Shown: piece by piece, positions 8,306 to 38,086 of the stretch
Position numbering within the stretch: the stretch's first letter is position 1
How the letters are laid out: each line of letters starts with the position of its first letter
IMG/VR virus record: IMGVR_UViG_2684622669_000016
Span: 1-38,086 of that record
From: a virus
Lineage: Duplodnaviria; Heunggongvirae; Uroviricota; Caudoviricetes
Direction: 5' to 3' (one strand)
Length of the DNA stretch: 38,086 nucleotides
The notes under the pieces: model-generated
Seen by the model: only the letters and a program-made list of their open reading frames with translations
Databases searched by the model: none
What the model was told of the DNA's origin: nothing
Position numbers and translations under genes: made by a program

Positions 8306-8821
8306 TCAGAGGCCGAGGGCGTTGCGGTGCGCTTCCATCAGGTCCACACCGTCCACAATTTCCACCATGTTGATAAGGTCCACTTCATAGAGCACCTCAC
8401 CATTGATAGTCAGCTTCGCGTAGCTGTTGGTACTGGTCACTTTAGTGGTGTTGCTTTCGCCCGTCTTCCACTCGCCGGAATCCACTTCTTTGTGACGTCC
8501 ACGCACCACAAGCTCCACGGCCTGCACTTCCCCGGTATCATCACGCTGGATAGAGCCGGTAAAGCGCAACTGGATGCCATCCACCGTGGCTTTGCCCATC
8601 TGCTTAAACAGCAGCAGCTCAGTACCACCAATGGAAAATTCTGTGTCCAGAGCACTGTCATCAAGCCCCAGATCCACATCCACCGCCCCCGGCATTCCGC
8701 CGCCGCGATACTTCTCATATTTGCGGGTGAATTTCGGCAGCGTCAGCGACTCAACGATCCCCTGCCAGTTGTTCCCGTCGTTAAACAGGTTCAGGTGTTT
8801 TAATTTGCGTGGTAAAGCCAT
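8306..8821 (-). CDS. FII: tail tube protein FII
   Basis: 171 aa; MALPRKLKHLNLF... resembles P2 gpFII. Confidence 0.9.
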   Translation of the reverse strand: MALPRKLKHLNLFNDGNNWQGIVESLTLPKFTRKYEKYRGGGMPGAVDVDLGLDDSALDTEFSIGGTELLLFKQMGKATVDGIQLRFTGSIQRDDTGEVQAVELVVRGRHKEVDSGEWKTGESNTTKVTSTNSYAKLTINGEVLYEVDLINMVEIVDGVDLMEAHRNALGL

Positions 8822-8830
8822 GTTGTCCCC

Positions 8831-10003
8831 TTACGCGCTGACCTGGCTGGAGAAATTCACCAGGTACTGATCGGTGATGCGCTGACGCAGCATCAGGTTT
8901 TCAAGTGGCGGCACTGGCGTGTAGTCGTAGTCGATGGTGAGCTTCCCGGCTTTCAGAGTATCTTTGTCGTTCACCGACTCATCCAGCCAGCAATCACCAC
9001 CAATGAGATAGCCCTGACTGACCAGGCTGCGCATTTTGGCGCGGATACCTTCGATAATGTCGCGGGCCAACGACGGGTTCAGCGGTTTGTCCACCGCCCA
9101 CATATGCGCTTCTGCCATTGTGTCCATAAGTACTTGCGCCGTGCGGGTGTAGTTTTCGAAGGCAAAGAGCGGGTCATCACTCAGGCAGCGGGAACCCCAG
9201 AAGCGGAAACCGTCTTTGCGGATAAGGGTGGTGACGTCGTTCTGGTTCAGCAGACCTGCATCGGTTGCCGTGTCCTGCAGATCCCAGAACACATCAGCAG
9301 AAATTCCGGTGACACCGTTAACGCCCACATTGGACAGGCTTTTGTGCCACCCAGTCTGCTCATCAATTTTTGCACGCAGACCAAGCGCACGGGCGGTGGC
9401 ATATGCCGTTGCTTCGGCATTCAGCACCGTGTCCCAGCCAGTAAAGTCGGGCCAGATCAGCATTCCTTCGCGCTGGCTGAAGTTTTCACGGTAAGTGATC
9501 GCCTCCTGCACCGTCTTGCAGCCATACGCTGACAGGTAAGCAAACCCACGCAGGCTTTGCGCCACACTCAGCAACTCAGTAGCAACGGCTTTGTTATCGT
9601 GACCTGGCACGCCGAGAATGCGCGGTTTAACGCCGAGCTGTGTCTGGGCAGATAACAGGGCTTTCATGCCTGTTTTTTTACCTTCAGCAGTCACTGCGCC
9701 GATGATATTGGTCGTGGTTTCTTCTTCCGTTTCACCCTGCGGCACACGCACAACAACGGTCACGGGTTTTGCCTGGTCAGCGATGGCATCCAGCGAACGG
9801 GCCAGCGTGCCGGACTCACCCGCTTTACCGCTGGCAGTCAGCACATCAGTGATCAGCACGGGTTTATTAAGAGGAAACATTTTTGCATCGGCATCATCGC
9901 CCGTGCAGACCATACCCACGATGGCGGTGCTCACCGTGGTAATGGATCGGGTGCCTTCGTTGATTTCAACAACGCGCACCCCGTGGTGGTAATCCTGAGC
10001 CAT
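8831..10003 (-). CDS. FI: contractile tail sheath protein FI
   Basis: 390 aa; resembles P2 gpFI. Confidence 0.9.
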
Positions 10004-10145: not shown

Positions 10146-10712
10146 TCAGGGAGATTCATTGCTCTTATTTGCCGGAAATTTTCGATAAATGGTAGAAACG
10201 CCTACATCAAAAATCAGTGCAATACGCTGTCTTGATTCTCCGGCCTTGAGTAAACGCCCAATCTGTGCCCACTGTTCGCTGGTCAACTTAGGACGGCGTC
10301 CACCTACTCTGCCTTTGGCACGAGCTGCAGCCAGCCCTGCCCTGGTACGTTCAACTATCAGTTCGCGTTCCATTTCAGCCAGGGCACCCATGACATGAAA
10401 AAAGAAACGGCCCATTGGGGTACTGGTATCAATACTGTCAGTCAGACTTCGGAAATTCACGCCGCGCTGGCGCAACTCTTCTATCAGCGTAACAAGATGC
10501 CGCATACTGCGTCCCAACCTGTCCAGCTTCCAGACAACCAGCGTGTCTCCTGCCGATAGTGTCCTGAGTAGTTTTTTCAGCCCCGGTCTGTCGGACTTAG
10601 TGCCACTGATTTTGTCCTCAAAAATCCGCTCACATCCCGCGCAGTTCAGTGCATTACGTTGCAAATCGGTGTTCTGGTCATTTGTTGACACGCGTACATA
10701 GCCAATAAGCAT
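10146..10712 (-). CDS. serine DNA invertase (Gin/Hin/Pin/Cin family)
   Basis: 189 aa from the ATG at 10712 (MLIGYVRVSTNDQNTDLQRNAL...); catalytic Ser within YVRVST; C-terminal HTH; adjacent to tail-fibre segments. Confidence 0.9.
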   Translation of the reverse strand: MLIGYVRVSTNDQNTDLQRNALNCAGCERIFEDKISGTKSDRPGLKKLLRTLSAGDTLVVWKLDRLGRSMRHLVTLIEELRQRGVNFRSLTDSIDTSTPMGRFFFHVMGALAEMERELIVERTRAGLAAARAKGRVGGRRPKLTSEQWAQIGRLLKAGESRQRIALIFDVGVSTIYRKFPANKSNESP

Positions 10713-10767
10713 GATCAATCCCCTGAATAAAAACCGGGGATGATGCCAGTTAGCCATTATCTCTGCA

Positions 10768-10793
10768 TTTTCATAAACGTTGGTTTGGGAGAA
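10768..10793. repeat. gix/hix-like inversion crossover site (right)
   Basis: ttttcataaacgttggtttgggagaa; its reverse complement matches 12151-12176 at about 21/26; 12-2-12 architecture with central AA/TT like hix/gix. Confidence 0.7.
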
Positions 10794-11174
10794 GCGGCAA
10801 AACGGAATATCGGTGCTGGAGCCAATCAAGTCCCCGACATGTCCTTTTTTACATCAGCAAAGGGTGATAACGGATACTTTTCCTTACCGGACGGCACTAT
10901 TGTGCAATATGGAAAAGCCACAACGATAAGAAATAATGAAATTAGCCTGGTAACTTTGCCATTTTCCTTTCCCACAAAGTTCTCTCAGGTACTGATAACC
11001 CATGATGATGCCGCAACTACAAATGCAGTTGCTTTTGGCGCCGCCACTCCAAAAACTGTTTCAACATTTCAGGTTGTCGTGCAGAAACTAGATTTTAATA
11101 CCGCCACTGGAGCTGTCACATTACGAACCACTGCTTCACCGTGCTACTTCCGTTATATCGCAATCGGGAGCTAA
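10768..11174 (+). CDS. alternative (silent) tail-fibre C-terminal segment
   Basis: Reading frame continues through the crossover site (…INVGLGEAAK-RNIGAGANQ…) and shares GLGEAAK with H at the other crossover site; would fuse to the H constant part after inversion. Confidence 0.7.
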
Positions 11175-11178
11175 TTTT

Positions 11179-11403
11179 ATGCAAAACAAATACAGTCCAT
11201 CTATGAATACGTTCTTTATGGCTGAATTTATGCGTCGTTACGAACAAGCTGGTACATTGCCTGATGATGCAATAGAGATACCCGATGAAGTATTTAAAGA
11301 ATACACAGGGGAACCACCGGACGGAATGATGAGGGTTGCGGGTAGTGATGGTCTACCCGCATGGGCAGAAATTATTTACACTCAGGAACCATCGGCCAGA
11401 TGA
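11179..11403 (+). CDS. alternative tail-fibre assembly protein, apparently truncated (74 aa)
   Basis: N-terminal Tfa-like region (…GSDGLPAWAEI…) but no conserved C-terminal Tfa domain; 3' end collides with the 3' end of G. Confidence 0.5.
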   Translation: MQNKYSPSMNTFFMAEFMRRYEQAGTLPDDAIEIPDEVFKEYTGEPPDGMMRVAGSDGLPAWAEIIYTQEPSAR

Positions 11404-11827
11404 TATCAGGAGCACTGGAGGTATCAATCAGTTCCAGTGCGTCCAGATAATCCAGCCACAGATTATATTGCGCCAGTTCCTCACCTTTCAGACGCCCGAT
11501 TGCTGCTTTGCCGGGCCACTGCTTGCTATTCATATAATCGTTGGCCTGGTCAATTCTCGACTGCTTTTCTGAGTCAGCCACTGCAAGTTGTTCTTCATGC
11601 GTAGGTGGCGGAAGATCTACCCAGCAAGGCAACCCATCATCACCAATGCTCCGCACTTTACCTTCGGGAGCTTCTCCCATGAAAACCAGCGCATCGGCAG
11701 CATTTATATTGATGCCGTCTGACGGCCATGTGCCAGCAGTTAAATAATCATCTTGTAGTGCTACAAGATAAAAAGCATTTTCAGCCGGGCTGAATACATA
11801 GTCGACCATTAATATCCCACTCCCCAT
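11372..11827 (-). CDS. G: tail-fibre assembly protein (P2 G-like)
   Basis: 151 aa; C-terminal motif …QYNLWLDYLDALELIDTSSAPDIIWPMVP typical of the caudoviral tail-fibre assembly domain. Confidence 0.85.
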   Translation of the reverse strand: MGSGILMVDYVFSPAENAFYLVALQDDYLTAGTWPSDGININAADALVFMGEAPEGKVRSIGDDGLPCWVDLPPPTHEEQLAVADSEKQSRIDQANDYMNSKQWPGKAAIGRLKGEELAQYNLWLDYLDALELIDTSSAPDIIWPMVPECK

Positions 11828-13212
11828 ACTGCCACTGTTGAATTAGATTTCGTATATGCGCAAGCGGCTTTGAATTTGACCCGGTCAACAATCGCTGCGC
11901 TAACAAAAGGAGCTCCATTAGTCGCGTAGATCACAGAATTGACCAGCGAAGGATTGATGGAAAGGCAAGCATTAGGAAAGGCAACCGGCCATGAGTCATC
12001 AACAACGACCATATTACCGTCGGTAGATTGCGGCACTGATACCATCTTCCACTGAAGCAGTGCTGTTCGTTGTACTCCACCAATTAATACTGGAATAGTG
12101 ATGTTACCTGCACTGCTGGCCAATGCTGTTGCAGCAGGCATTTTTGCCGCTTCTCCCAAACCAAGGTATGTGAGAAGACCAGCTACATCCTTTCCACTCA
12201 AATTAGTCAGCGTATTGTCCAGCGGTTGTTTACCTGCCAGTGCATTAAGCATTGTCGTGGCAAAGTTCGGGTCATTCCCCAGCGCCGCCGCCAGTTCGTT
12301 CAGTGTATCCAGTGCCGCAGGTGCAGAACCCACCATTGCCGCAATCGCCGATTTCACAAAAGCCGTAGTGGCAATCTGTGTATTGTTGACCGACTGCGCC
12401 GCCGTGGGGGCTGTTGGCGTTCCGGTGAGTGCCGGACTCGACAGTGGCGCTTTCAGTGCCAGCGCATTGTTAATGGTGGTACTGAATTTCGGATCATTGT
12501 TAATGGCTACGGCTATTTCTTTCAGCGTGTCCAGCGTGGCTGGAGCACCATTAATAAGAGCCGTCAGTGCCGCCTGAACAAACGCGGTGGTCGCAACCTG
12601 CGTGGTGTTATTCCCCGCCGCTGGCGTTGGCGCTTTGGGGGTTCCGGTAAACGTCGGACTTTCTTTGGGTGCATACTGTGAATGCGGGTCCGGTGCGGCA
12701 AGATGTTTTGCCATCAGGTCATCCACGTACACCTTCAGCTCCAGTGCCTTGTCATCCACATACTTGCGGGTTGCCAGCACTACGGCAGGGTCGATTTTCA
12801 GGGTGATATTGTCCGTGCTGCTGGTAATCAACACCATACGCACGGTCTGGGTACGCCCGCTGCCTTCAGCCAGTTGCGGCTTATAGCTTTCCGGGCAGTT
12901 GCCCACGGCAATCAATGCCCCGGACTCATCAAACAGGCCCACTTCACGTATCCACCAACCGCCCTCGTTTTCAGGGATCACCTGTTCAGCAATAATCTGG
13001 CTGCTGTTCTGCGGGTCGATATAGAGCATATTCAGCGCAGCCCGGCGTTTCTCATTTACTAATGCTGTCTGCTTTGCGTTCGGCGTTGGCAATGTTCCGC
13101 CGCCATCGCCGACCGCCATATGGGTAATTTTTAAAGGCACACCGAGCGCGGCGGCGCTGGCAAGTTTCTCCGCGCCAATATCCGTCAGCAGGGTATAAAA
13201 TTTTGTGCTCAT
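11809..13212 (-). CDS. H: tail-fibre protein H (constant N-terminal part plus currently expressed variable C-terminus)
   Basis: 467 aa; N-terminus resembles P2 gpH; crossover site embedded at the GLGEAAK codons. Confidence 0.9.
   Translation of the reverse strand: MSTKFYTLLTDIGAEKLASAAALGVPLKITHMAVGDGGGTLPTPNAKQTALVNEKRRAALNMLYIDPQNSSQIIAEQVIPENEGGWWIREVGLFDESGALIAVGNCPESYKPQLAEGSGRTQTVRMVLITSSTDNITLKIDPAVVLATRKYVDDKALELKVYVDDLMAKHLAAPDPHSQYAPKESPTFTGTPKAPTPAAGNNTTQVATTAFVQAALTALINGAPATLDTLKEIAVAINNDPKFSTTINNALALKAPLSSPALTGTPTAPTAAQSVNNTQIATTAFVKSAIAAMVGSAPAALDTLNELAAALGNDPNFATTMLNALAGKQPLDNTLTNLSGKDVAGLLTYLGLGEAAKMPAATALASSAGNITIPVLIGGVQRTALLQWKMVSVPQSTDGNMVVVDDSWPVAFPNACLSINPSLVNSVIYATNGAPFVSAAIVDRVKFKAACAYTKSNSTVAVWGVGY
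12151..12176. repeat. gix/hix-like inversion crossover site (left, inside H)
   Basis: ttctcccaaaccaaggtatgtgagaa; inverted repeat of 10768-10793. Confidence 0.7.
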
Positions 13213-13814
13213 GGATTCACTCTCATTGTGTCAATAACATGGACCGCCCCGCCTTCATGCGCGGTGCCGCCAGAAATAATTGTTTCGTTGATATACGGAT
13301 AGATCGTGATTTCTTCGCCAAGATAGCTGGCGGCTCCCACCCAATGCGGGCCGCTGGTCTGCAGGTTGATGGACATGCCGATCATGTGACGGCTACATGG
13401 TTTGGCATCGCTTATCAGTCGCTCAAGTTCCAGATAGGTATCTTCAGTGATGCCCTGGTCCTGCACGCCGATATCCAGGCGAAACGTGCCCGGTGTCTCT
13501 CCGGTCTGCCACCACTCAATAATGCGGATCAGAAAGCCGAACGGCTCCACCACCCGCCGCACGGCACTGGTGGTCCCTTTATGCTGATGAATATAAAAAG
13601 CATCCTTCACCACCTGGCGCTTGACGCTTTCTGTCCAGCCCTCGTCCCAGCGATCCACAGAGAACGCCCAGGCGAGATAAGGCAGGAAACTGACCGGACA
13701 GGTTGCCGGATTCCACAAGTCACGCAGCGGCACCTGCAGATCAGTAATCCCGCTGCAGGTTTGCGCCAGTCGGCGCTCCAGTGAAGTTGAACCCGGTGGC
13801 AGCAGACTATTCAT
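13209..13814 (-). CDS. I: baseplate assembly protein I
   Basis: 201 aa; …LPYLAWAFSVDRWDEGW… resembles P2 gpI. Confidence 0.85.
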   Translation of the reverse strand: MNSLLPPGSTSLERRLAQTCSGITDLQVPLRDLWNPATCPVSFLPYLAWAFSVDRWDEGWTESVKRQVVKDAFYIHQHKGTTSAVRRVVEPFGFLIRIIEWWQTGETPGTFRLDIGVQDQGITEDTYLELERLISDAKPCSRHMIGMSINLQTSGPHWVGAASYLGEEITIYPYINETIISGGTAHEGGAVHVIDTMRVNP

Positions 13815-14715
13815 CCGTTCCTCCGTTGGTTACGTGCCACTGCGTACATGATGCCGCCTGTGTTTTGTTCAGGACCACATCCGCCAGAGGAGAAGCCAGC
13901 TCCACACGCTGCACACCCTCAACATGCAGGGCGGCAAAGATGGCGCTACGGCGAATATCCCGACCAAGACGCGTCTGACTGGCGATGTACTTCTGCAGGC
14001 TGACTTTTGCCGCTGCCATTACCGGCTCTGCTTCCGGTCCCGGATAAAGAAAAATGGTGGCTTCCACTCGGTACGGGATGATTTCTGCGCTGCGAACCGT
14101 CAGACGGTCAGCCACCGGGCGGACGTTCTCACTGTTCAGGGCGTTCTCCACCACATCCAGCAAGTCTTTTTCTGCTGTTCCGTCGCCTTCGCGGCTAAGG
14201 ACAGTCAGCACCACCTCTGCAGGTGCCGGACTGGTTGCACTGGCATCCGCCACCCGACCGTCGGCGCTTCGTGCATGAAACTCATAAGCGGCAGTTGGCC
14301 CCGCAACAGAAAGCCCTTCAAAGGCTGCAGGCACACGCAGGCGTAATGCTTCATCATTTTCCATCACAGCCGCAACGGGCGGTACAGCGTCATCATCAGC
14401 AGGTGTCACCGTCAGGCGTTTCACGTTGTAGTTAGCAGCGAGCTGGTCAAGATCGCCGCCCATCGCGTAAGCCACCATCACCGCCTGCGCGGCTTCGTTA
14501 ATGCGCTGGCGCAGAAGCAACTCACGATAAGCGTTCTCCTGCAACAATTTGGTAACGGGTTCAGATTCCAGTTCCAGCGTGCGGATCACTGCTTCCTGCT
14601 CATCTTTCGGATGAAGCGCCACAAATTCTGCCTTGCGTTCGGCAAGCAGCGTCTCAAAGTCCGGCACATCCACAATCTGCGGCGCAGGCAACTGCGAAAG
14701 GTCAATCACTGCCAT
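13807..14715 (-). CDS. J: baseplate assembly protein J
   Basis: Start taken at the ATG at 14715 (MAVIDLSQLPAPQ…), matching the P2 gpJ N-terminus; overlaps the W 3' end by 14 nt. Confidence 0.85.
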   Translation of the reverse strand: MAVIDLSQLPAPQIVDVPDFETLLAERKAEFVALHPKDEQEAVIRTLELESEPVTKLLQENAYRELLLRQRINEAAQAVMVAYAMGGDLDQLAANYNVKRLTVTPADDDAVPPVAAVMENDEALRLRVPAAFEGLSVAGPTAAYEFHARSADGRVADASATSPAPAEVVLTVLSREGDGTAEKDLLDVVENALNSENVRPVADRLTVRSAEIIPYRVEATIFLYPGPEAEPVMAAAKVSLQKYIASQTRLGRDIRRSAIFAALHVEGVQRVELASPLADVVLNKTQAASCTQWHVTNGGTDE

Positions 14716-15061
14716 TCTCTGCTCCTGTTGATACGGAAAGGGAAACAGGCACACCGTTATTACGCCGCCCGGTCAGCGCCACCACCATTGAACCGTCAAA
14801 ATGGCTGTTGATGGTGATGGAATCCAGCGTCAGCCGTGGCTCCCAGCGACTCAGCGCCACATACACTGCCGACATGACCTGCAGGCGTAACGCCGGATTT
14901 TGTGGCTGGTCTATCAGTGCCGACAGCAGGGAACCATATTCACGGCGAGCAATGCGGCTACCCTGCGGCGTCAGCAGAATGTCCCGCACCGACTGGCGCA
15001 GATGGTCAATATCAGTAATGGCTTTACCGCTGGTATTGTTCATCCCGCTATAAAGCGTCAT
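14702..15061 (-). CDS. W: baseplate protein W
   Basis: 119 aa; position and size as P2 gpW. Confidence 0.85.
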   Translation of the reverse strand: MTLYSGMNNTSGKAITDIDHLRQSVRDILLTPQGSRIARREYGSLLSALIDQPQNPALRLQVMSAVYVALSRWEPRLTLDSITINSHFDGSMVVALTGRRNNGVPVSLSVSTGAENGSD

Positions 15062-15636
15062 ACCGGGCCTCCGGTTGTGTCGCCGCCTTTCAGGACGCCA
15101 GTATGCTGATGCGCATCAACCTCGATCCCGTTAGAACTCATCGCTCCGCCGCCCTGGGTAACGCCACCATTGATCACCACTTCGCTGTTAATGCGCGTGC
15201 GGTCAGCCTCCAGTACAAACTCACTGGTTTTCATGGTGATGTTGTCAGCGGCCTCAATGACCATTGATTTGATGCCCCTGACATACCAGCGCCCGGTGGC
15301 GGGTTCGTATTCAAACCAGCCACCGTCAGGATGTTCTGTCACACAGGCGTCCGCCGACGTCGACGGTGGCGCGAACTGATTCGAATAGATGGCGGGTAAC
15401 GCAAAGGCGGTTTCCAGATTGCCGCCCAGACTCAGCAGCACCACCTGCTCACCTTCCGATGGTCGCCACCATGTGCGGGCATTCCCGGCACGCAGCGTCA
15501 GCCAGCTGATCCAGTTAGTTTCAAGCTCGCCCGTTTTCACCCGGCAAAGCCAGTTTTCCCGGTCCACTTCGGTGACTACACCTGTGCGGATCAGGTTGGT
15601 GATAAGGCGCATGATTTCGGTTAATTGTGCGTTCAT
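15058..15636 (-). CDS. V: baseplate spike/assembly protein V
   Basis: 192 aa; resembles P2 gpV. Confidence 0.85.
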   Translation of the reverse strand: MNAQLTEIMRLITNLIRTGVVTEVDRENWLCRVKTGELETNWISWLTLRAGNARTWWRPSEGEQVVLLSLGGNLETAFALPAIYSNQFAPPSTSADACVTEHPDGGWFEYEPATGRWYVRGIKSMVIEAADNITMKTSEFVLEADRTRINSEVVINGGVTQGGGAMSSNGIEVDAHQHTGVLKGGDTTGGPV

Positions 15637-24480: not shown

Positions 24481-26154
24481 TTAAGATTTATGGCTAAAGA
24501 GTATACCTGTAACAGAACGTTGATAGGCATCAAGCTTCTCTTGCCTCTGCTTAAATTTAGATTTGATATCACTAATACTCGGAATACCTATTACTCCAAG
24601 GCCTGCACTTAACGCCGCTAAAGTAGTATTGCCAGTCAGCGCTCCAGCAATTGCTATAGCACCATTTGCGATACATGGTAGGACATCCAGTCCGTAAATT
24701 CTCAATTTCTCTTTTTGGGCTTTTGCAAGAATCCTTTGATGTTCAATAAAAGCCCGGTCTACATTATCAATTACTTTTTGCGTTGTCCTCGAAAAGCTCT
24801 CTGCCGAAGAATTGATTAAAGAGTCAACACCATTTGATAAGATGGATCTTACATCCTCCATCAATTTGTTACGTCTCAACTCAATTATTTTATTGACCGG
24901 TACATTTCCTAACCATGAAAAACCATCTTGCATACCAGCAGATAACGCATGAACCATATGCAAATTTTTTAGTTCAATATCATTGACATCAAAATTAAGA
25001 GATTCGTACTCAATAAGCCAAGTATAATAGAGCCAAGATGTGTCTGCATTTATATATGGAGTACTACCAAGTTCTTGTGCATTACATTTTGCTGAATAGG
25101 CTTGCGGCATTCTTCCAATGCAGGAAAGGAAAACCTCCATTCCAGCATGATCACCAACAACATTACGTGATATTCTTTTTTTATCAGATAGTAGTTTTTC
25201 TAATTGAGTTTTTGGATTTAGCCCCCATGCTGTATCAAAAATAAGTCTATCTGCTCTCTTAATATTTTTAAGAACAGCATCAATATCATTCATCGAATAA
25301 CTAAAATCTTGAAATTCATCGTAGCTTTCGAACCGTCGATCATAGAGATATTGCGCATGAGTCAGAGCATAAGGCTCACAAAAACTCATCAAATTTTTTT
25401 TGCTCTCAGTTTCAAAATCTCTTCTATCCGGCAAAATTAATACTATTGCTGGCTCTATATCTTCAAGCGCTACTTCTTTATATGTCATACATGTTAGGAC
25501 ATGCTTCAGAAGTATCCTTGTAAACTCAGCCTTATCTGACTTTTCATAGAGACGACCGACTCTTAATATAGGACATGGAAGTGAAATAGTATCAACATAC
25601 AACCCTGCAATAGAGACAGCATTCTCATCAAATGCAGGAAATAAGTCACCAGAAAAATTAGCTTTAAACTGAGAACCATCCTGCAAATGTATTACACCAA
25701 TATCGGATGTTACCTGCCAAAACTCTATTACCTGATTATATAACTCAGGAAAAATATCTTCTATTTGCTTAACATATTCTTCTTGTTGAGAAAAAAAACT
25801 TGATGCTTTATGTGGCGTTGCATTAGTTTTTTTCATCAGATAAAACAACTCGCCAAAATTACTAAAAAGAATATTAAAGTAAGAACTTTGCAAGTCCTGA
25901 ATAGAGTATTTGTTTTTTATATCTTCTCTTTCTAAAAAGTGATTAACCGCTGCTCCCATAGCCCTTATTCTGCCATCAACAGTAGAAGGGTCAACTTTAC
26001 CATCCTGTCGCAGCCTTATTCTTTTAAAACTTTCAATAAAACCTTCTACAAGATGATGAGCTATTTTTAGTTTTCCCGCTTCCAGTTGTTGCTTAATGAG
26101 AAAAACACGCTCAGTTAAATCGTCTACATATTCCTCATCTTGATATTTTTCCAT
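24481..26154 (-). CDS. 557-aa protein of unknown function, AT-rich cargo gene (candidate anti-phage / exclusion gene)
   Basis: Long uninterrupted ORF, visibly AT-rich against the GC-rich structural genes; no recognisable motif by eye; C-terminal Gly/Ala-rich hydrophobic stretch. Confidence 0.8.
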   Translation of the reverse strand: MEKYQDEEYVDDLTERVFLIKQQLEAGKLKIAHHLVEGFIESFKRIRLRQDGKVDPSTVDGRIRAMGAAVNHFLEREDIKNKYSIQDLQSSYFNILFSNFGELFYLMKKTNATPHKASSFFSQQEEYVKQIEDIFPELYNQVIEFWQVTSDIGVIHLQDGSQFKANFSGDLFPAFDENAVSIAGLYVDTISLPCPILRVGRLYEKSDKAEFTRILLKHVLTCMTYKEVALEDIEPAIVLILPDRRDFETESKKNLMSFCEPYALTHAQYLYDRRFESYDEFQDFSYSMNDIDAVLKNIKRADRLIFDTAWGLNPKTQLEKLLSDKKRISRNVVGDHAGMEVFLSCIGRMPQAYSAKCNAQELGSTPYINADTSWLYYTWLIEYESLNFDVNDIELKNLHMVHALSAGMQDGFSWLGNVPVNKIIELRRNKLMEDVRSILSNGVDSLINSSAESFSRTTQKVIDNVDRAFIEHQRILAKAQKEKLRIYGLDVLPCIANGAIAIAGALTGNTTLAALSAGLGVIGIPSISDIKSKFKQRQEKLDAYQRSVTGILFSHKS

Positions 26155-26544: not shown

Positions 26545-27285
26545 ATGACTGTGCACAAGCTCTCTGGTGCGTTTTTCCACGATATGCAGGTTGAGTGGCC
26601 CTGCCCTAACTGCAATCAGAAAACCCTACAGATCATTAAAGAAAGTTTCGTCTCGTATGACACACATGATACCCGAAAATTCCGCAGTGAAGATTGGTTT
26701 GAACCAGAAATGGATTCATCTATTTTCAGTTGCATGGCCCGCTGTTCAAGAATGCAATGTGGTGAAGTTGTGGCCTGTACTGGTAAGAGTGGATGGGAAC
26801 AAGGTTGGGATGAAGAAAGAAATGATATTGAGTACTATCAATGGCACAGACCTTTCACCTTTTACCCATCACTGCATCCTTTCGAAATACCTGAAAAATG
26901 CCCAGAAGAAATTACCGAACCGCTTGAAGCCTCATTTTCCATTTTCCTAATACAGCCTGGCGCAGCAGCAAACCTAATTCGAATTTCAGTTGAAAGAATG
27001 CTAACCGCTATGGATGTAGCTGAACGTAATGATAATGGCAAACGCATAACTCTACACCACCGTTTAGGGATGCTACCTGAATTATACGGATCGTTTTCAA
27101 GACCTCTTATGGCAATTAAATTTTTAGGAAATGCCGGAAGCCATACCTACGATGAAGTAAAAGTCAAAGACATTGAGGATGCTTTTGAGATTATGGAGTA
27201 CGTCGTCAATGACTTGTTCTCCGGTCGCAAAGAATCTGTCGAAGTATTGACGAAACGATTAAGTGAAAAATTCAAAGAAAACTGA
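26545..27285 (+). CDS. 246-aa protein: N-terminal Cys-rich zinc-ribbon-like region plus C-terminal DUF4145/HEPN-like domain (candidate abortive-infection effector)
   Basis: Strong SD (tgagga) before the ATG; CPNC…C…CSRMQC cysteine cluster; C-terminal …RITLHHRLG…IKFLGNAGSHTYDE… resembles the DUF4145 signature as recalled; AT-rich. Confidence 0.8.
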   Translation: MTVHKLSGAFFHDMQVEWPCPNCNQKTLQIIKESFVSYDTHDTRKFRSEDWFEPEMDSSIFSCMARCSRMQCGEVVACTGKSGWEQGWDEERNDIEYYQWHRPFTFYPSLHPFEIPEKCPEEITEPLEASFSIFLIQPGAAANLIRISVERMLTAMDVAERNDNGKRITLHHRLGMLPELYGSFSRPLMAIKFLGNAGSHTYDEVKVKDIEDAFEIMEYVVNDLFSGRKESVEVLTKRLSEKFKEN

Positions 27286-27998: not shown

Positions 27999-30440
27999 TT
28001 AATACATGTTCCGCCATTTATCATCCTCCTGCAGACGCTGGTTCCGATAGAAGATACGCAGGCCTGCTCCTGACGGAATACTGCCACCGCGAAGGAGCAA
28101 CTCGACCTCTTTCTCGCTGCCATCAAATCCTCTGGACTTCAGTTCATAGACAAGCTGCTGTCGCTGATGGTCTGTAATTCGCTGTTTGTAGTCTTTACGC
28201 CGTTTCGGTTTCACCAGGCGTAACCTTGCTGCCAGTTCCCGGCGATCTTTTTTGCTCATACTGTGCAGATAATCGTGCAACTCCTTGTCATCCATGCAGG
28301 TAATGTCCGTTCTGGTGTCCCCATCAGCTGATTTATCTTTCTCCTGCTGGTTCAAATTTTCAGCAAGGGGACAGTTATTGCCACGAGTCCAAGGGGCGCA
28401 AGCGCCCTGGTCGGCTGCCGCCTCCTGAATGTCAACGGCCTTACGAACCATTTTCCACTTCACCGCATGAGTGCAGATCTTGCCCTCTGCAATGGGTGAC
28501 CAGATGCCATAAATACGAATGCCGTGATCGCCATAGGCGGTCGGCTCTTCGTTGATTTCATAAGCAGTTCTGATGAGGTGATATTTGCGGGGAACCAGTA
28601 CGCCGCCCTGCTTCATGATGTAGGTAGCAAAACAACCAGCATCAGCAGCAGCCAGGATTGCATCAAGGCGCGGGTTATCCAGTACCGGCGCACCTGCTTT
28701 TTTGTCCCCCTGTTGCCTTGCAACCTGACCAGCCAGCAATCGCAGTTCACGGTAAGCCTGACGCCCCGGAATGCCAAAGAAGCGGAATTGCTGAACACGA
28801 TGCAGAGACGCCCAGGCATTAACGTATTCAGCGTTATCACGCAGGGATTTACCCGTTTCCTTGCTGATCTCGCCAGCCAGACCACGCCCGTCAATGTTCT
28901 TACTGATGTATTTCGCGATGTAGCTTGTTGGCGTACCTTTGCGCGGGTTTATCAGCTCAGACTTAAAGCGTGGTCCCGTGTTATTACCCAGCTCCTCGCG
29001 GTCTTCACGAATGGCAAACTTACGCAACAAAGCAGTAATGGCACGGCGATCTTTTTTGCGCATAAAACACAACAGGTGCCAGTGAACTGTACCGTCATGA
29101 TGCGGCTCAGCTACCCGCACGCCATACCAGCGCAATCCGGCTTTGTGCATCGCCTTACGAAATGCAGCAAACATGCCGACCAGATAATCACTGCTTTGTC
29201 TTACCGTCGCATTTGTCCATGTCGGGTTTGGTCTGCCGTTATTGAGCGTGGAATGGAAACGTGACGGACAGGTGATGGTGTAGAAAACGGCGCAGTCACC
29301 GCGCATTTCCGCGATAAGTTCCAGACCTTTAACACAGGCCATCATCTCATTGCGGCGGTGCGCCGGGTTGCTGCTGCTGGCGTTTACCACATCTTCCATA
29401 TCCAGCGTGTCGCCGTCTTCGTTCACCAGTTCATGAGAACGGAAAAACTCCAGCGACTTACGGCGCTGCTCACGTTTATGCATCACGGCTTCATAGCTGA
29501 CATAGGGGGATGCTTTTTTGCTGACCAGGCAGACAGCACGCAACTGCTCTTCCCGCCATTCGCAACGCATCTTCCATAATTTCCGATACCACCAGTCGGC
29601 ACACAACATACGCGCCAGCGAACCCGGAATGAGTTCATAGGGCACGGGTTTACGGCGGTTTCTTTTCCGACGGAGTTGCTCAAACGCAGGCGGAATAACA
29701 TCCAGACGCAGGGTTTCCGCTGCCACCTTTTCCCATGTTTTGCGGATTTCTTCTGGCTTAACGTCATCGGTGGCATACAAATCACCACAAGCGGCATCAA
29801 GGCACATGCTCATATGCGCAGCGACAAGGGTAGACAGGCGCTTCACCTGATCCTGACTCATTTCAGGCAGGATAAGCAGGCCATCCAGCCCTTCATGACT
29901 TGCCATAAAGCGAAAAGAAGTGGATAGCTGACAGTCGCGGACATGCTCCAGTCGTTCCAGACATGGCTTAATCGTCTCACGCAAATAGCGGGAATAAGCC
30001 TTTGGCCTGCCCAGGCTGCTGAAATATTCAATACGTTGCATCAGCGGCTTGCTGATATGGGAAGGCTGGGCGTTGACGTCAGCCAGAATGACCATGTCTG
30101 GATTAAAACGCTGCTGCTCATGCGCCAGCTTTGCCCGGCTAATGAGCTTATCCTGCTCCATTTCGTGCTGGACAGGATCACGGGATTCATTAAAGAAATA
30201 ACGCTCCCAGACCTGATCACTCAGTGCCTCGCGGCGCAGTTGTTCCTGCTCGTTATCGGCAGCGTACAGAGTGATCAGGTTTGAAAGTGCAGAAACCGGC
30301 GCAACTTCCGCCGGGTCCAGATAAGGGTTAATGGCCTTTTTCGGGCTGTTCCATGAGAATGCTGCGGCGACCTCGTTAAAGCCGCTGCAGTTGTTCATAT
30401 CAGCATGGCTCATGCACGCACTCCGTACACGGCGGAACAA
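27999..30440 (-). CDS. A: replication initiation protein A (rolling-circle HUH endonuclease)
   Basis: 813 aa; HUH-type motif (…[12 protein letters not shown]…); size and position as P2 gpA; the true start may be the ATG at 30413. Confidence 0.9.
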
Positions 30441-34208: not shown

Positions 34209-35147
34209 ATGCCAACTCAAAAAATCACATTTCGCCATATTGAAGATAGTCTGAAAGCTATGGTCATGCAGAATCGTGGAGGGCAAAAAGTCATTGAGAG
34301 GATACTCAAGGCCTATGGTTTCAAATCACGCCAAGCCTTCTGTAAGCATCTTGGTATTTCACAAAGCACAATGGCTAATAGATATGCACGCGATACCTTC
34401 CCTGCTGATTGGGTTGTTATATGTTCAATGGAAACTGGCGCATCCCTAGAATGGCTGGCCTTTGGTTCTAACAATGCAGAAGAAAGTTCCCCCCCTTATG
34501 TGGAACAACATGATGAAACAGTCCCACATGAGGGGTTTAACAGCAACGCTCATCAATCATCCTTTAAGCGCCGCATTGAGAATCACATTGAGCTTACTAA
34601 CGGAGGAAAAGCCGCGATAGAGAGGATTGTTAATGCTTACGGGTTTAAAACCCGCCAAGCCTTAGCCGACCACCTTGGTATTTCAAAAAGCACATTAGCC
34701 ACACGATACATGCGAGATTCTTTCCCTGCGGATTGGGTGATTAAATGCGCATTAGAAACCAAAGCGGATCTCGCCTGGCTAGTTACAGGAATCGAAACAC
34801 CAAATAGTTCACAAGAAGAAAACACTGTAATTTTAAATAAGTTCAATTTGGTCAATGGCGTGCTTGTCGAGTCAGGTTTTTTATCCATGGATCGGTGTCT
34901 ACTTCCGAAGCAAGAAACTAGCAGCTTGATGTTTGTAAGCAATGGAGAAAAACATGTCATATGTGATAAAGAATTTCACCTAATTAGAGATGGAAAATGG
35001 TTAGTAGGAATTGACAATGAGTTATCTTTAAAAGAGTTAACTCGTTTACCTAAGAACAAAATTCTTGTTTCTGGTGGGAGTAAGGATTTTGAGTGTTCCA
35101 TTGAGGATATTCAAATTATAGCCAGCATTATCTTAACAATACAATAA
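34209..35147 (+). CDS. cI: CI-type immunity repressor with tandemly duplicated N-terminal DNA-binding domain
   Basis: 312 aa; two 186-CI-like units (…ERILKAYGFKSRQAFCKHLGISQSTMANRYARDTFPADWVVICSMETGASLEWL… and …ERIVNAYGFKTRQALADHLGISKSTLATRYMRDSFPADWVIKCALETKADLAWL…) followed by a C-terminal domain. Confidence 0.85.
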   Translation: MPTQKITFRHIEDSLKAMVMQNRGGQKVIERILKAYGFKSRQAFCKHLGISQSTMANRYARDTFPADWVVICSMETGASLEWLAFGSNNAEESSPPYVEQHDETVPHEGFNSNAHQSSFKRRIENHIELTNGGKAAIERIVNAYGFKTRQALADHLGISKSTLATRYMRDSFPADWVIKCALETKADLAWLVTGIETPNSSQEENTVILNKFNLVNGVLVESGFLSMDRCLLPKQETSSLMFVSNGEKHVICDKEFHLIRDGKWLVGIDNELSLKELTRLPKNKILVSGGSKDFECSIEDIQIIASIILTIQ

Positions 35148-35190: not shown

Positions 35191-36960
35191 ATGAATCATC
35201 ATCTTTCAAAGATTTCTATAAAAAACTTTAGATCTTGCAAAGATATTGATATCAATTTTTCTTCATTCACGCCTTTAATCGGTTACAACAATGCTGGTAA
35301 GTCAACGATTTTAAATGCTATTGAATGGCTTTTTAAGAAAAAACTTTTGTCCTCTGATGATTATACTAATCCAGATAACCCTATAGAAGTTATAGGTACA
35401 GTTAAGGGTATTACTGAAGATATTTTGTCAGCTTTAACAGAAGAAAACAGAACTAGAATTTCACCCTACATTATTGACGGGGTATTGATATTTAAGCGTC
35501 AACAGCCTGTTGGTGCTCAAAGTGCAAAAGACGTCAGATTATTAATTAAAAACCCAGAAAATAACGAATTCAGGACATCACCAACGGGTATTGAGAATGC
35601 GATAAAAGCTTTATTTCCAGACCCAATACGTATAGGTGCAATGGAAAATGCAGCGGATGATTCTTCAAAATCAAAAACAGGAACTACAATAGGTAAGTTG
35701 CTGGCAGAATTGAGTTGCAAAATAGAAGAGAAGCACACTCAAAGGATACTAAGCCATTTAAATGCCGTTAATAGAAGAATGACTGCAACCGGTAATAAAC
35801 GAATATCGGACCTCAATGATATTGATGATTCAATAAGTAGTAAAGTTGCTGATTTCTTCCCTGGGATAAGTTTAAAACTACACTTCGAACTCCCTGACTT
35901 CAAGGATATATTTAAATCAGGGACTGTAAAAGTATATGAAGATTCATTTCCCGGCATTGCTCGTGACTGTTCTTCTTATGGTCATGGCACACAGCGTTCG
36001 ATTCAGATGGCTCTAATAAGACATTTAGCTGATATAACCAACGGTGATGATATTAAAACAACTACTCTACTGTTAATAGATGAACCTGAGTTATATCTTC
36101 ACCCATTTGCTATCGAACAAATTAGAGAATCTCTAAAAACACTATCTCATCATGGATATCAAATAATTTTCTCTACCCATTCATCTCAAATGATTACCTC
36201 TGACTTAGCAAAAGACACTGTGTTAATCAGAAAAAACAGTCAGCGTGGCACTCATTGCAGATTAACATTAAAAGAAGCAGTCAATAAAGTAATCGAACAA
36301 CGACCAGCACAAGCAACCCATTTATTTTCATTAACACAGTCTTCAAAAGTTTTGTTTGCTAACAATGTAATACTAACAGAAGGTAAAACAGAGACTACTC
36401 TGCTCCCATTTATTTTTAACAAAGTTAAAAATAAAACATTAGGTCAGATGCAAATAGCACTAATTGAAACAGGGTCCGTTGAAAGTATATCTAAAACGAT
36501 GCAAATTCTAAATTCAATGGATATACCTACAAAAGCAATTGTTGATTTAGATTTTGCGTTCCGCGGTGCAATAAGGAACAACTTCTTAGAACATAATGAC
36601 GAGGATATTTTACGACTAAAAGAAATCTTGAGAAGTATGCATGCTAATGGAGAATGCACTCTCGATGGATCCGGTTTGCCTACAAAGGGTAGTAACACTA
36701 CCGCAGCTGAAGCATTTGCTATTATGTCTCAAAAGCCCGGCGCCAGAGAATTTTTGTCATCATTAGCCGCAAAACTGAGAAATGCAAATATTTGGATTTG
36801 GCTAAATGGTTCGATAGAAAACCATTTGGGTCTTACAGAAAAAAATGAATCAGTATGGGCTGATTTCAAAACAAAAGCAGATACACAACCTCTTTCAGAT
36901 ATCTGTGCAGATTTCGAAAGTATTGAGGCTTTAGTCGACTGGATTACCCCTGACGTATGA
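35191..36960 (+). CDS. old: OLD-family ATPase/Toprim nuclease (P2 Old homologue)
   Basis: 589 aa; Walker A GYNNAGKST; FRSCK, IDEPELYLHP and Toprim VILTEGKTE motifs; collinear with P2 Old as recalled; AT-rich; GGAGG SD. Confidence 0.85.
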   Translation: MNHHLSKISIKNFRSCKDIDINFSSFTPLIGYNNAGKSTILNAIEWLFKKKLLSSDDYTNPDNPIEVIGTVKGITEDILSALTEENRTRISPYIIDGVLIFKRQQPVGAQSAKDVRLLIKNPENNEFRTSPTGIENAIKALFPDPIRIGAMENAADDSSKSKTGTTIGKLLAELSCKIEEKHTQRILSHLNAVNRRMTATGNKRISDLNDIDDSISSKVADFFPGISLKLHFELPDFKDIFKSGTVKVYEDSFPGIARDCSSYGHGTQRSIQMALIRHLADITNGDDIKTTTLLLIDEPELYLHPFAIEQIRESLKTLSHHGYQIIFSTHSSQMITSDLAKDTVLIRKNSQRGTHCRLTLKEAVNKVIEQRPAQATHLFSLTQSSKVLFANNVILTEGKTETTLLPFIFNKVKNKTLGQMQIALIETGSVESISKTMQILNSMDIPTKAIVDLDFAFRGAIRNNFLEHNDEDILRLKEILRSMHANGECTLDGSGLPTKGSNTTAAEAFAIMSQKPGAREFLSSLAAKLRNANIWIWLNGSIENHLGLTEKNESVWADFKTKADTQPLSDICADFESIEALVDWITPDV

Positions 36961-37033: not shown

Positions 37034-38086
37034 ATGGCAGTACGAAAACTCACCACAGGAAAATGGCTTTGCGAATGTTACCCCGCCGGACGAAGTGGGC
37101 GTCGTGTGCGTAAACAATTCGCCACCAAAGGCGAAGCACTGGCTTTTGAGCGTCACACGATGGAAGAAACCGAAGCAAAGCCCTGGCTGGGTGAATCAGT
37201 GGATCGTCGAACACTGAAAGACGTGGTTGAGCTATGGTTCAAACTACATGGTAAATCTCTGACAGCTGGGCAGCATGTCTATGACAAATTGCTGTTGATG
37301 GTTGACGCTCTGGGCAATCCTCTTGCAACCGATCTCACCTCTAAAATGTTTGCCCACTATCGAGATAAACGACTGACAGGCGAGATCTACTTCAGCGAGA
37401 AATGGAAGAAAGGAGCAAGCCCGGTCACCATTAACCTGGAGCAAAGCTATCTAAGTAGTGTTTTTAGCGAACTATCCCGTCTGGGCGAATGGTCGTATCC
37501 GAACCCACTGGAGAACATGCGAAAATTCACCATCGCAGAAAAAGAGATGGCATGGCTTACCCATGAGCAGATTGTTGAATTGCTGGCTGATTGCAAACGT
37601 CAGGACCCAATTCTGGCACTGGTAGTCAAGATATGCTTAAGCACAGGCGCACGCTGGCGAGAAGCAATAAATCTTACCCGTTCACAGGTGACTAAATACC
37701 GAATTACCTTTGTAAGAACGAAGGGGAAGAAAAACAGAAGCATCCCTATCAGTAAAGAGCTTTACGAAGAGATCATGGCGCTTGATGGTTTCAATTTCTT
37801 CACAGACTGCTATTTTCAATTTTTATCCGTGATGGAAAAAACGTCTATCGTGCTCCCTCGCGGTCAACTGACACACGTTCTGCGCCATACGTTTGCGGCG
37901 CATTTCATGATGTCGGGTGGAAATATCCTTGCTTTGCAAAAAATCCTCGGACATCACGATATAAAAATGACGATGCGTTACGCACATCTGGCACCGGATC
38001 ATCTGGAAACGGCGCTCCGTTTCAATCCTCTGGCAACGCTGCCAAGTGGCGACAAAGTGGCGGCAGCGGTTGGCATTACCCCGTAA
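37034..38086 (+). CDS. int: P2-type tyrosine integrase
   Basis: 350 aa; N-terminus and catalytic region (…LSTGARWREA…VLRHTFAAHFMMSGGNILALQKILGHHDIKMTMRYAHL…) resemble P2 Int. Confidence 0.9.
   Translation: MAVRKLTTGKWLCECYPAGRSGRRVRKQFATKGEALAFERHTMEETEAKPWLGESVDRRTLKDVVELWFKLHGKSLTAGQHVYDKLLLMVDALGNPLATDLTSKMFAHYRDKRLTGEIYFSEKWKKGASPVTINLEQSYLSSVFSELSRLGEWSYPNPLENMRKFTIAEKEMAWLTHEQIVELLADCKRQDPILALVVKICLSTGARWREAINLTRSQVTKYRITFVRTKGKKNRSIPISKELYEEIMALDGFNFFTDCYFQFLSVMEKTSIVLPRGQLTHVLRHTFAAHFMMSGGNILALQKILGHHDIKMTMRYAHLAPDHLETALRFNPLATLPSGDKVAAAVGITP
38047..38068. repeat. right prophage attachment core (attR): tggcgacaaagtggcggcagcg
   Basis: 21/22 identical direct repeat of 2835-2856; lies within the last codons of int. 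Confidence 0.6.

Follow-up and report, generated by a model that had tools for sequence, protein, structure and literature searches.

A Gin-family tail-fibre inversion switch in a P2-like prophage pairs one fibre tip with a conserved tail-fibre assembly protein that has the N-terminal domain only

The stretch of DNA analysed here, which we call the window, covers positions 1 to 38,086 of IMG/VR virus record IMGVR_UViG_2684622669_000016 (38,086 nucleotides in total, Caudoviricetes). Its tail-fibre region is laid out as a putative inversion switch, with a serine invertase gene beside a segment of ~1.4 kb that is bounded by two inverted crossover sites. The minus strand of the segment carries the variable tip of the tail-fibre gene H and the assembly gene G, and the plus strand carries a silent alternative tip (tip') and a short tail-fibre assembly (Tfa) gene, tfa', whose product has only 74 amino acids (aa). 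We describe the switch, the evidence that it inverts, and the grounds for considering tfa' a maintained gene. The features of the switch are as follows.

10146–10712, minus strand: Gin-family serine DNA invertase, 188 aa (ATG at 10712, stop at 10146)
10768–10793: left crossover site of the gix/hix type, 26 bp, TTTTCATAAACG TT GGTTTGGGAGAA; inverted repeat, aligns with Mu gixR
10782–11174, plus strand: tip', silent alternative fibre C-terminus, 130 aa from GLGEAAK, without a start codon; Gp53-like_C
11179–11403, plus strand: tfa', short tail-fibre assembly protein, 74 aa; N-terminal Tfa domain only
11372–11809, minus strand: G, full-length tail-fibre assembly protein, 145 aa; Caudo_TAP, expressed in the present orientation
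11809–13212, minus strand: H, tail fibre, 467 aa; Phage_tail_fib N-terminal domain (E 7e-65), tip with a weak Gp53-like_C match
11809–12163, minus strand: variable tip of H, currently expressed
12151–12176: right crossover site, inside H, 26 bp, TTCTCCCAAACC AA GGTATGTGAGAA; inverted repeat
12164–13212, minus strand: constant part of H

The invertase is intact, with Resolvase (E 2.4e-53) and HTH_7 (E 1.2e-15) domains in Pfam, and is colinear with residues 1–184 of Gin from phage Mu (PDB 3UJ3/4M6F, E 6e-93). It keeps the catalytic Ser9 (VRVST is retained) and has Met, the wild-type residue, where the activating M114V substitution would fall. The two crossover sites lie at the outer ends of inverted-repeat arms of 35 nt (10768–10802 and 12142–12176) that are 89% complementary, and the exact 23-nt core of this repeat is confined to these two places, with no match in any of 100 shuffles. 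Read in the inverted orientation, the right site is TTCTCACATACC-TT-GGTTTGGGAGAA and agrees with the left site at 22/26 positions, including the central dinucleotide (TT/AA). The inner half-sites are identical and the outer ones differ, which by sequence is the gix/hix layout. In addition, gixR, with which the left site aligns, lies ~55 bp upstream of the invertase start in Mu, and the distance here is similar. Translation places both sites in frame, at YLGLGEAAK in H and at NVGLGEAAK at the start of the silent tip. A loose search with the core for a third gix-like site returned 22 matches against 17.9 expected, which is chance level and points to a two-state switch; a multi-inversion system like Min of p15B was considered and rejected, as no extra crossover site rose above chance. 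Between the left site and the invertase start there is a weak hairpin followed by a T-run (10732–10751, minus strand; a consensus match only), which might curb transcription running on from the late fibre operon into the invertase gene. A promoter and terminator scan found nothing beyond chance.

Within the segment, tip' scores 45.1 bits against Gp53-like_C (PF21882, E 1.5e-11; cut-off 24.9). Only 4 nt separate its stop codon from the start of tfa', which has GGGAG 8 nt before its ATG, and the last 32 nt of tfa' overlap the 3' end of G on the opposite strand. A previous interpretation made from the letters and open reading frames (ORFs) alone, hereafter the sequence-only reading, had proposed this anatomy: a Gin/Hin-type switch with the invertase at 10146–10712, the inverted 26-bp sites, their in-frame positions at GLGEAAK and the two tip-plus-tfa pairs on opposite strands. 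All of it held up.

Inversion of 10781–12163 in silico gives an open 480-aa fibre protein, H', followed after 4 nt by tfa'. The same prophage is present in E. coli GPEC1405 (L002) with the segment in the opposite orientation, its 3-kb flanks being 99.8% identical to the window on the H side and 97.9% on the invertase side. The junctions in GPEC1405 are the exact reciprocal products of an exchange at the central TT/AA, and its 480-aa protein differs from the in-silico H' only by two substitutions, which lie in the constant part. The exact 74-aa protein is recorded in 150 blocks of the assembly collection, and ten places among them were examined for orientation. The inner 1357 bp (10794–12150) are 100% identical in nine of the ten. 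Four have the window orientation with near-identical flanks (L026, L027, L030, L033) and three are flipped (L028, L034 and L035, the last with more diverged flanks, ~80% identical); the remaining three, of which two are flipped, are Mu-like prophages whose flanks are unrelated. Thus tip' and tfa' are joined to a fibre N-terminus in 5/10 places. Counting GPEC1405, nine assemblies have the identical inner 1357 bp; in seven of them the flanks are 94.5–100% identical, and these seven cover both orientations. Both orientations also occur, in different samples, for a second, related element whose tfa' is 89% identical (L012 and L015 versus L011, L013 and L014). As far as comparative data show, then, the switch inverts, with the exchange at the centre of the sites.

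A separate observation is that Mu-like prophages (L031, L032 and L029 within the L026–L035 set) and P2-like ones have the inner 1357 bp in common, with 100% identity. The Mu-like flanks (Mu gp46/47/48, DinI, integrase) are unrelated to the window. The gix-bounded cassette has evidently moved very recently between unrelated myovirus backbones, and this transfer may have occurred by invertase-mediated or homologous exchange.

The two assembly genes of the segment differ in domain content. G matches Caudo_TAP (PF02413) over positions 3–131 of 131 (E 1.6e-29, 103 bits), and tfa' matches positions 4–60 only, with 20.4 bits, under the cut-off of 22.1; it therefore fails the whole-protein cut-off, and the conserved C-terminal domain (profile positions ~65–131) is absent, in line with what the sequence-only reading had said of it. 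The tfa' protein is 38% identical to residues 6–66 of G (E 8e-15) and matches positions 44–109 of the 207 in phrog_188 (E 5e-18). Aligned with full-length Tfa proteins, as that reading had suggested, tfa' corresponds to their N-domain alone: identity with residues 1–65 of annotated phage Tfas is at most 45%, and every alignment stops at residue 64–65. An exhaustive profile search with tfa' returned 489 hits, mostly the first ~70 residues of ~140-aa proteins. The 70-position family phrog_19350 is matched by tfa' at 5–67 and by the N-domain of G at 1–66, which means that short N-domain-only proteins have already been clustered from phage genomes; PHROGs also holds a separate C-domain family, phrog_3792, of 78 positions. 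The C-domain of G (residues 70–143) is the only part of G similar to Mu U (residues 107–175), and the tfa' profile has no match to Mu U. None of tfa', the tip and G had a relevant sequence match in the PDB, NCBIfam has no model matching tfa' or G, and tblastn detected no separate C-domain gene in the window. By these comparisons, tfa' is the N-terminal domain (1–65) of a G-type Tfa with a short unconserved tail, lacking the conserved helical C-domain.

The structure of tfa' was predicted with AlphaFold2 (AF2). On a shallow alignment of 10 sequences the predicted local distance difference test score (pLDDT) was 63, and the fold search from that model was meaningless; the model from a 30-sequence alignment was used instead (mean pLDDT 91, predicted template modelling score 0.74). 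In it, residues 1–65 form a compact beta-beta-alpha-beta-alpha-beta-beta domain (pLDDT ~95), and the tail (66–74, pLDDT ~53) is probably disordered. The idea that tfa' is an N-domain like that of Mu Tfa was unsupported, as neither fold searches nor the profile gave a match.

Short Tfa proteins of this kind form a family. We found at least 14 sequence clusters of 69–75 aa in Escherichia, Klebsiella, Salmonella, Citrobacter, Enterobacter and Pseudocitrobacter, with identity in the shared N-domain ranging from 99% down to ~45%. They end 6–13 residues past a conserved GLPxW motif, with unrelated tails, and in every context examined the short tfa lies 4–7 bp after a Gp53-like_C tip. For pairs drawn from the window, K. 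aerogenes, Pseudocitrobacter and a third prophage, the ratio of nonsynonymous to synonymous substitution rates (dN/dS) over tfa' codons 1–64 was 0.04–0.15 in every computable pair, with the synonymous rate (dS) reaching saturation. The upstream tip gave 0.03–0.18, and the dS values of tip and tfa' match pair by pair (e.g., 0.48 versus 0.43, and 0.88 versus 0.92), which indicates that the two genes were inherited together. The module is rare, being present in 1/5426 complete E. coli genomes and at a single locus, in Pseudocitrobacter, in a scan of one genome per species; none of the 50,697 phage records has a short tfa at >60% identity. RefSeq names the exact 74-aa protein 'MULTISPECIES: tail fiber assembly protein [Escherichia]'. 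The literature searched contained no description of N-domain-only Tfa proteins or of phrog_19350.

The contexts of the short tfa bear directly on its length. In the window the cassette is convergent with the 145-aa G; in L005, L008 and L011–16 it accompanies 200–201-aa tfaE-type proteins behind Collar-type fibres; and in L020–23 a 69-aa variant lies beside a 133-aa Tfa, 34 bp apart and without overlap. In L024 (Salmonella, 12 contigs) and L037–39 (metagenomes, 17 contigs) the order is V, W, J, I, H (333 aa, Gp53-like_C), tfa (75 aa), FI, FII, with neither an invertase nor a second tfa. The gap from tfa to the sheath gene there is only ~130 bp, too short for a C-domain, and recoding of tfa into a downstream C-domain was rejected for the same reason. 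L009 of K. aerogenes and the metagenomic L017 and L025 likewise have H and a 72-aa tfa as the sole tfa, with no invertase, followed by an inverted F operon. The tail-gene order of these three is unlike that of P2: in L009 (Klebsiella aerogenes GCA_031067645.1, 10350–15952), L017 and L025 the whole F operon (sheath, tube, E, T, U) runs opposite to V-W-J-I-H-tfa, and D and ogr again run forward.

Overlap with the partner gene accounts for part of the protein only. Convergent tfa pairs in this P2-like group regularly share 29–32 bp at their 3' ends (3024–3052 in L001, 3315–3343 in L003, 11372–11403 in the window), so that one piece of DNA encodes both C-termini, one on each strand. The stop codon of the partner gene lies within tfa' codons 65/66 in three cases (the window, L005 and L008), where the last tfa' residues are thus the antisense of the partner's end; this detail points towards a module joint. 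This antisense origin explains the variable tail but not the absence of the C-domain, which a module joint leaves unexplained because the stand-alone and non-overlapping versions are equally short. The sequence-only reading had held that tfa' is short since it runs into G, and that the flipped orientation may be defective or depend on G. Neither proposal survived: the same 69–75 aa are found with three types of partner Tfa, across a 34-bp gap and with no partner at all, and the gene is under purifying selection, is the sole tfa of prophages lacking an invertase, and lies in the expressed orientation in half of the places examined. The 74-aa protein is instead a complete member of a conserved family, the outcome that the sequence-only reading had itself named as counting against it. 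Overall, as judged from sequence conservation, tfa' is clearly not decayed, but selected, conserved and strictly linked to one subfamily of Gp53-like tips.

We consider it highly probable that the locus is a working two-state Gin-family switch in a P2-like (186/Elveevirus-like) prophage and that tfa' is a complete N-domain-only Tfa, most likely one that binds the H' tip and is sufficient for it. The invertase would exchange strands at the central TT/AA of the two inverted 26-bp gix-type sites, and each flip would swap the last 114 codons of H and the chaperone G (145 aa) for a 127-codon Gp53-like tip and the 74-aa tfa'. Dependence on Fis and an enhancer would be expected from the Gin family only; the 5' coding DNA of the invertase can be aligned with gin, an alignability that follows from protein conservation. 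The N-domain-only Tfas would travel with this tip subfamily as a two-gene cassette. According to PMC9608196, which cites North et al. 2019 and deals with Mu and Pam3, the variable N-domain of Tfa binds the fibre and the conserved helical C-domain trimerises. Binding of the H' tip by tfa', and its sufficiency for assembly of that tip, are most likely on the strength of this modular model, the co-inheritance with the tip and the stand-alone prophages. A broader proposal seems to us evenly balanced between right and wrong: that Gp53-like tips need no chaperone or cap beyond the N-terminal Tfa domain of ~65 residues, so that the C-domain would be dispensable for a whole class of enterobacterial myovirus fibres.

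Several points weigh against this explanation. The folding of H' with the 74-aa protein alone is a prediction, and a Tfa without the C-domain is at odds with the current model for Mu and Pam3, where the C-domain is thought to drive trimerisation (PMC9608196). The confident AF2 model of tfa' has no similarity to any solved structure, including the N-domain of Mu Tfa (5YVQ), and with no match to solved structures or to Mu U the fibre-binding role rests on position, co-inheritance and analogy. Other prophages in many of the hosts carry a full-length Tfa and could help in trans. The orientation differences are between assemblies, not within one culture.

Three other explanations were weighed against these data. 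The first is that the 74-aa protein has ceased to be a chaperone and is a small structural cap or adhesin accessory on a Gp53-like tip that folds by itself. Mu Tfa remains on the mature fibre and adds to receptor recognition (PMC9608196), the predicted tfa' domain is compact and autonomous, and the strict linkage with one tip subfamily would fit such a part. However, other Gp53-like_C tips, including that of the window's own H, are paired with full-length Tfas, and we regard this explanation as unlikely. It overlaps with the one we favour, tip binding being common to both. The second is that the short Tfa gives tip specificity and trimer nucleation comes in trans from a host chaperone or from the full-length Tfa of another resident prophage. 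Very different Tfas can carry C-domains of interchangeable sequence, as the resemblance of G to Mu U illustrates; PHROGs separates the N-domain-alone and C-domain-alone families; and several tfa genes per enterobacterial genome are usual (a median of two matching places per E. coli genome). Even so, no C-domain-only gene was detected in the window or beside the stand-alone cassettes, both domains are covalently linked in all characterised Tfa proteins, and depending on whichever prophage happens to share the host would serve a phage poorly over long periods, whereas the saturated dS marks the family as old. This arrangement thus appears quite improbable. Finally, that tfa' is a truncation remnant, its C-domain lost by deletion or at a module junction and its flipped orientation defective or in need of G, would suit the half-length match below the Pfam cut-off, the recurrent stop at codons 65/66 and the full-length alternative tfa genes of Cartapus and strain 4314 (131 and 200 aa), but is very improbable given the constant length across ~45–99% identity and several genera, the low dN/dS at near-saturated dS, the prophages without a switch in which it is the only tfa, the 69-aa variant that does not touch its partner, the five expressed copies among ten, and the place of G, which after inversion is antisense to the late operon and in the stand-alone prophages is absent.

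If the N-domain is indeed sufficient, the cassette would be the smallest natural unit of fibre tip and helper, already shuttling between P2-like and Mu-like prophages, and the C-domain, now seen as the universal core of Tfa function, would be dispensable for those fibres. A half-size helper that suffices would make the purpose of the conserved Tfa C-domain easy to test, and would provide a small part for retargeting phages or tailocins. The tip and its 74-aa helper make a compact, naturally portable host-range cassette of ~620 bp. For annotation, short tfa genes beside invertible fibre tips should not be dismissed as pseudogenes.

The surrounding tail module has the P2-like gene order V W J I H G ... 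FI FII E T U D, with matching Pfam families (from the ORFs and the annotation of relatives). The neighbouring tail genes are as follows.

8306–8821, minus strand: tube, tail module gene
8831–10003, minus strand: sheath, tail module gene
13209–13814, minus strand: I, tail module gene
13807–14754, minus strand: J, tail module gene
14702–15061, minus strand: W, tail module gene
15058–15636, minus strand: V, tail module gene

GPD, GPA and the CI/CII regulators were located elsewhere in the window. The prophage is inserted next to ybjL-ybjM-grxA, and the host flank is only 91.7% identical to E. coli, from which the host is taken to be another Escherichia species. The CI-repressor ORF (34209–35147, plus strand), 312 aa as listed, contains two Phage_CI_repr helix-turn-helix stretches, so its start may be mis-set or its helix-turn-helix duplicated. 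Adjoining the CI/CII immunity region is a full-length homologue of the P2 Old exclusion nuclease (35191–36960, plus strand; PADLOC Old, E 1.4e-234), with AAA_15 and OLD-like TOPRIM domains, followed by an ORF of 350+ aa (37034–38086, plus strand) that runs off the window and has no PADLOC match. Two further genes lie between the capsid/terminase side and the replication gene A (27999–30440), at the position of the P2 variable hot-spot. The first encodes a 557-aa protein (24481–26154, minus strand) that lacks Pfam domains and weakly matches DitB (6e-10), and the second a DUF4145 protein (26545–27285, plus strand) with a weak PD-T7-4 match (2e-5). Both are possible anti-phage cargo.

The mechanism of fibre-tip inversion is about 40 years old. 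Tail-fibre inversions in prophages are a well-documented class (PMC9881135, PMC4272514), and the switch described here is a member of the Gin/Pin/Cin/Hin class with nothing new in its mechanism. The closest comparison is the G segment of Mu with Gin (also Cin of P1, Pin of e14 and Hin of Salmonella). The invertase is ~80% identical to Gin; the inverted 26-bp sites are imperfect dyads, one of them ~55 bp upstream of the invertase start; the fibre has a constant N-terminus fused in frame to either of two C-termini; and each C-terminus is followed by its own tfa, the two tfa genes being convergent. The differences are that the segment is 3 kb in Mu versus 1.4 kb here, that the backbone here is P2-like and the tips Gp53-like, and that one chaperone has the N-domain only (74 aa, versus 175–177 aa for U and U'). 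In addition, similarity to Mu U is limited to the C-domain of G and is undetectable in tfa'. Among P2-like phages that carry an invertase (Cartapus/Elveevirus, pro483, 500465-1 and the Klebsiella Kp48xx prophages), the order is the same, namely sheath, invertase, alternative tip, alternative tfa, tfa, H, I and J, and the flanks of Cartapus are 96–97% identical to the window. However, their alternative modules consist of a YfdL-like tip with a 131-aa tfa, or of a tfaE-type protein of 200 aa, and the tfa is full-length. Of the modular Tfas (Mu Tfa, 5YVQ; Pam3 gp25), the scheme of a variable N-domain and a conserved helical C-domain is fitted by G; in contrast, tfa' is the N-module only, with a predicted fold that matches neither 5YVQ nor any other PDB entry. 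Its nearest counterpart is phrog_19350 (~70 residues), which the N-domain of G matches as well and which is itself unannotated. The half-size Tfa is thus a poorly described variant, though one already clustered in PHROGs and named in RefSeq. The system departs from the textbook in that one of its two chaperones, although clearly the product of a maintained gene, has no C-domain and scores under the Pfam cut-off.

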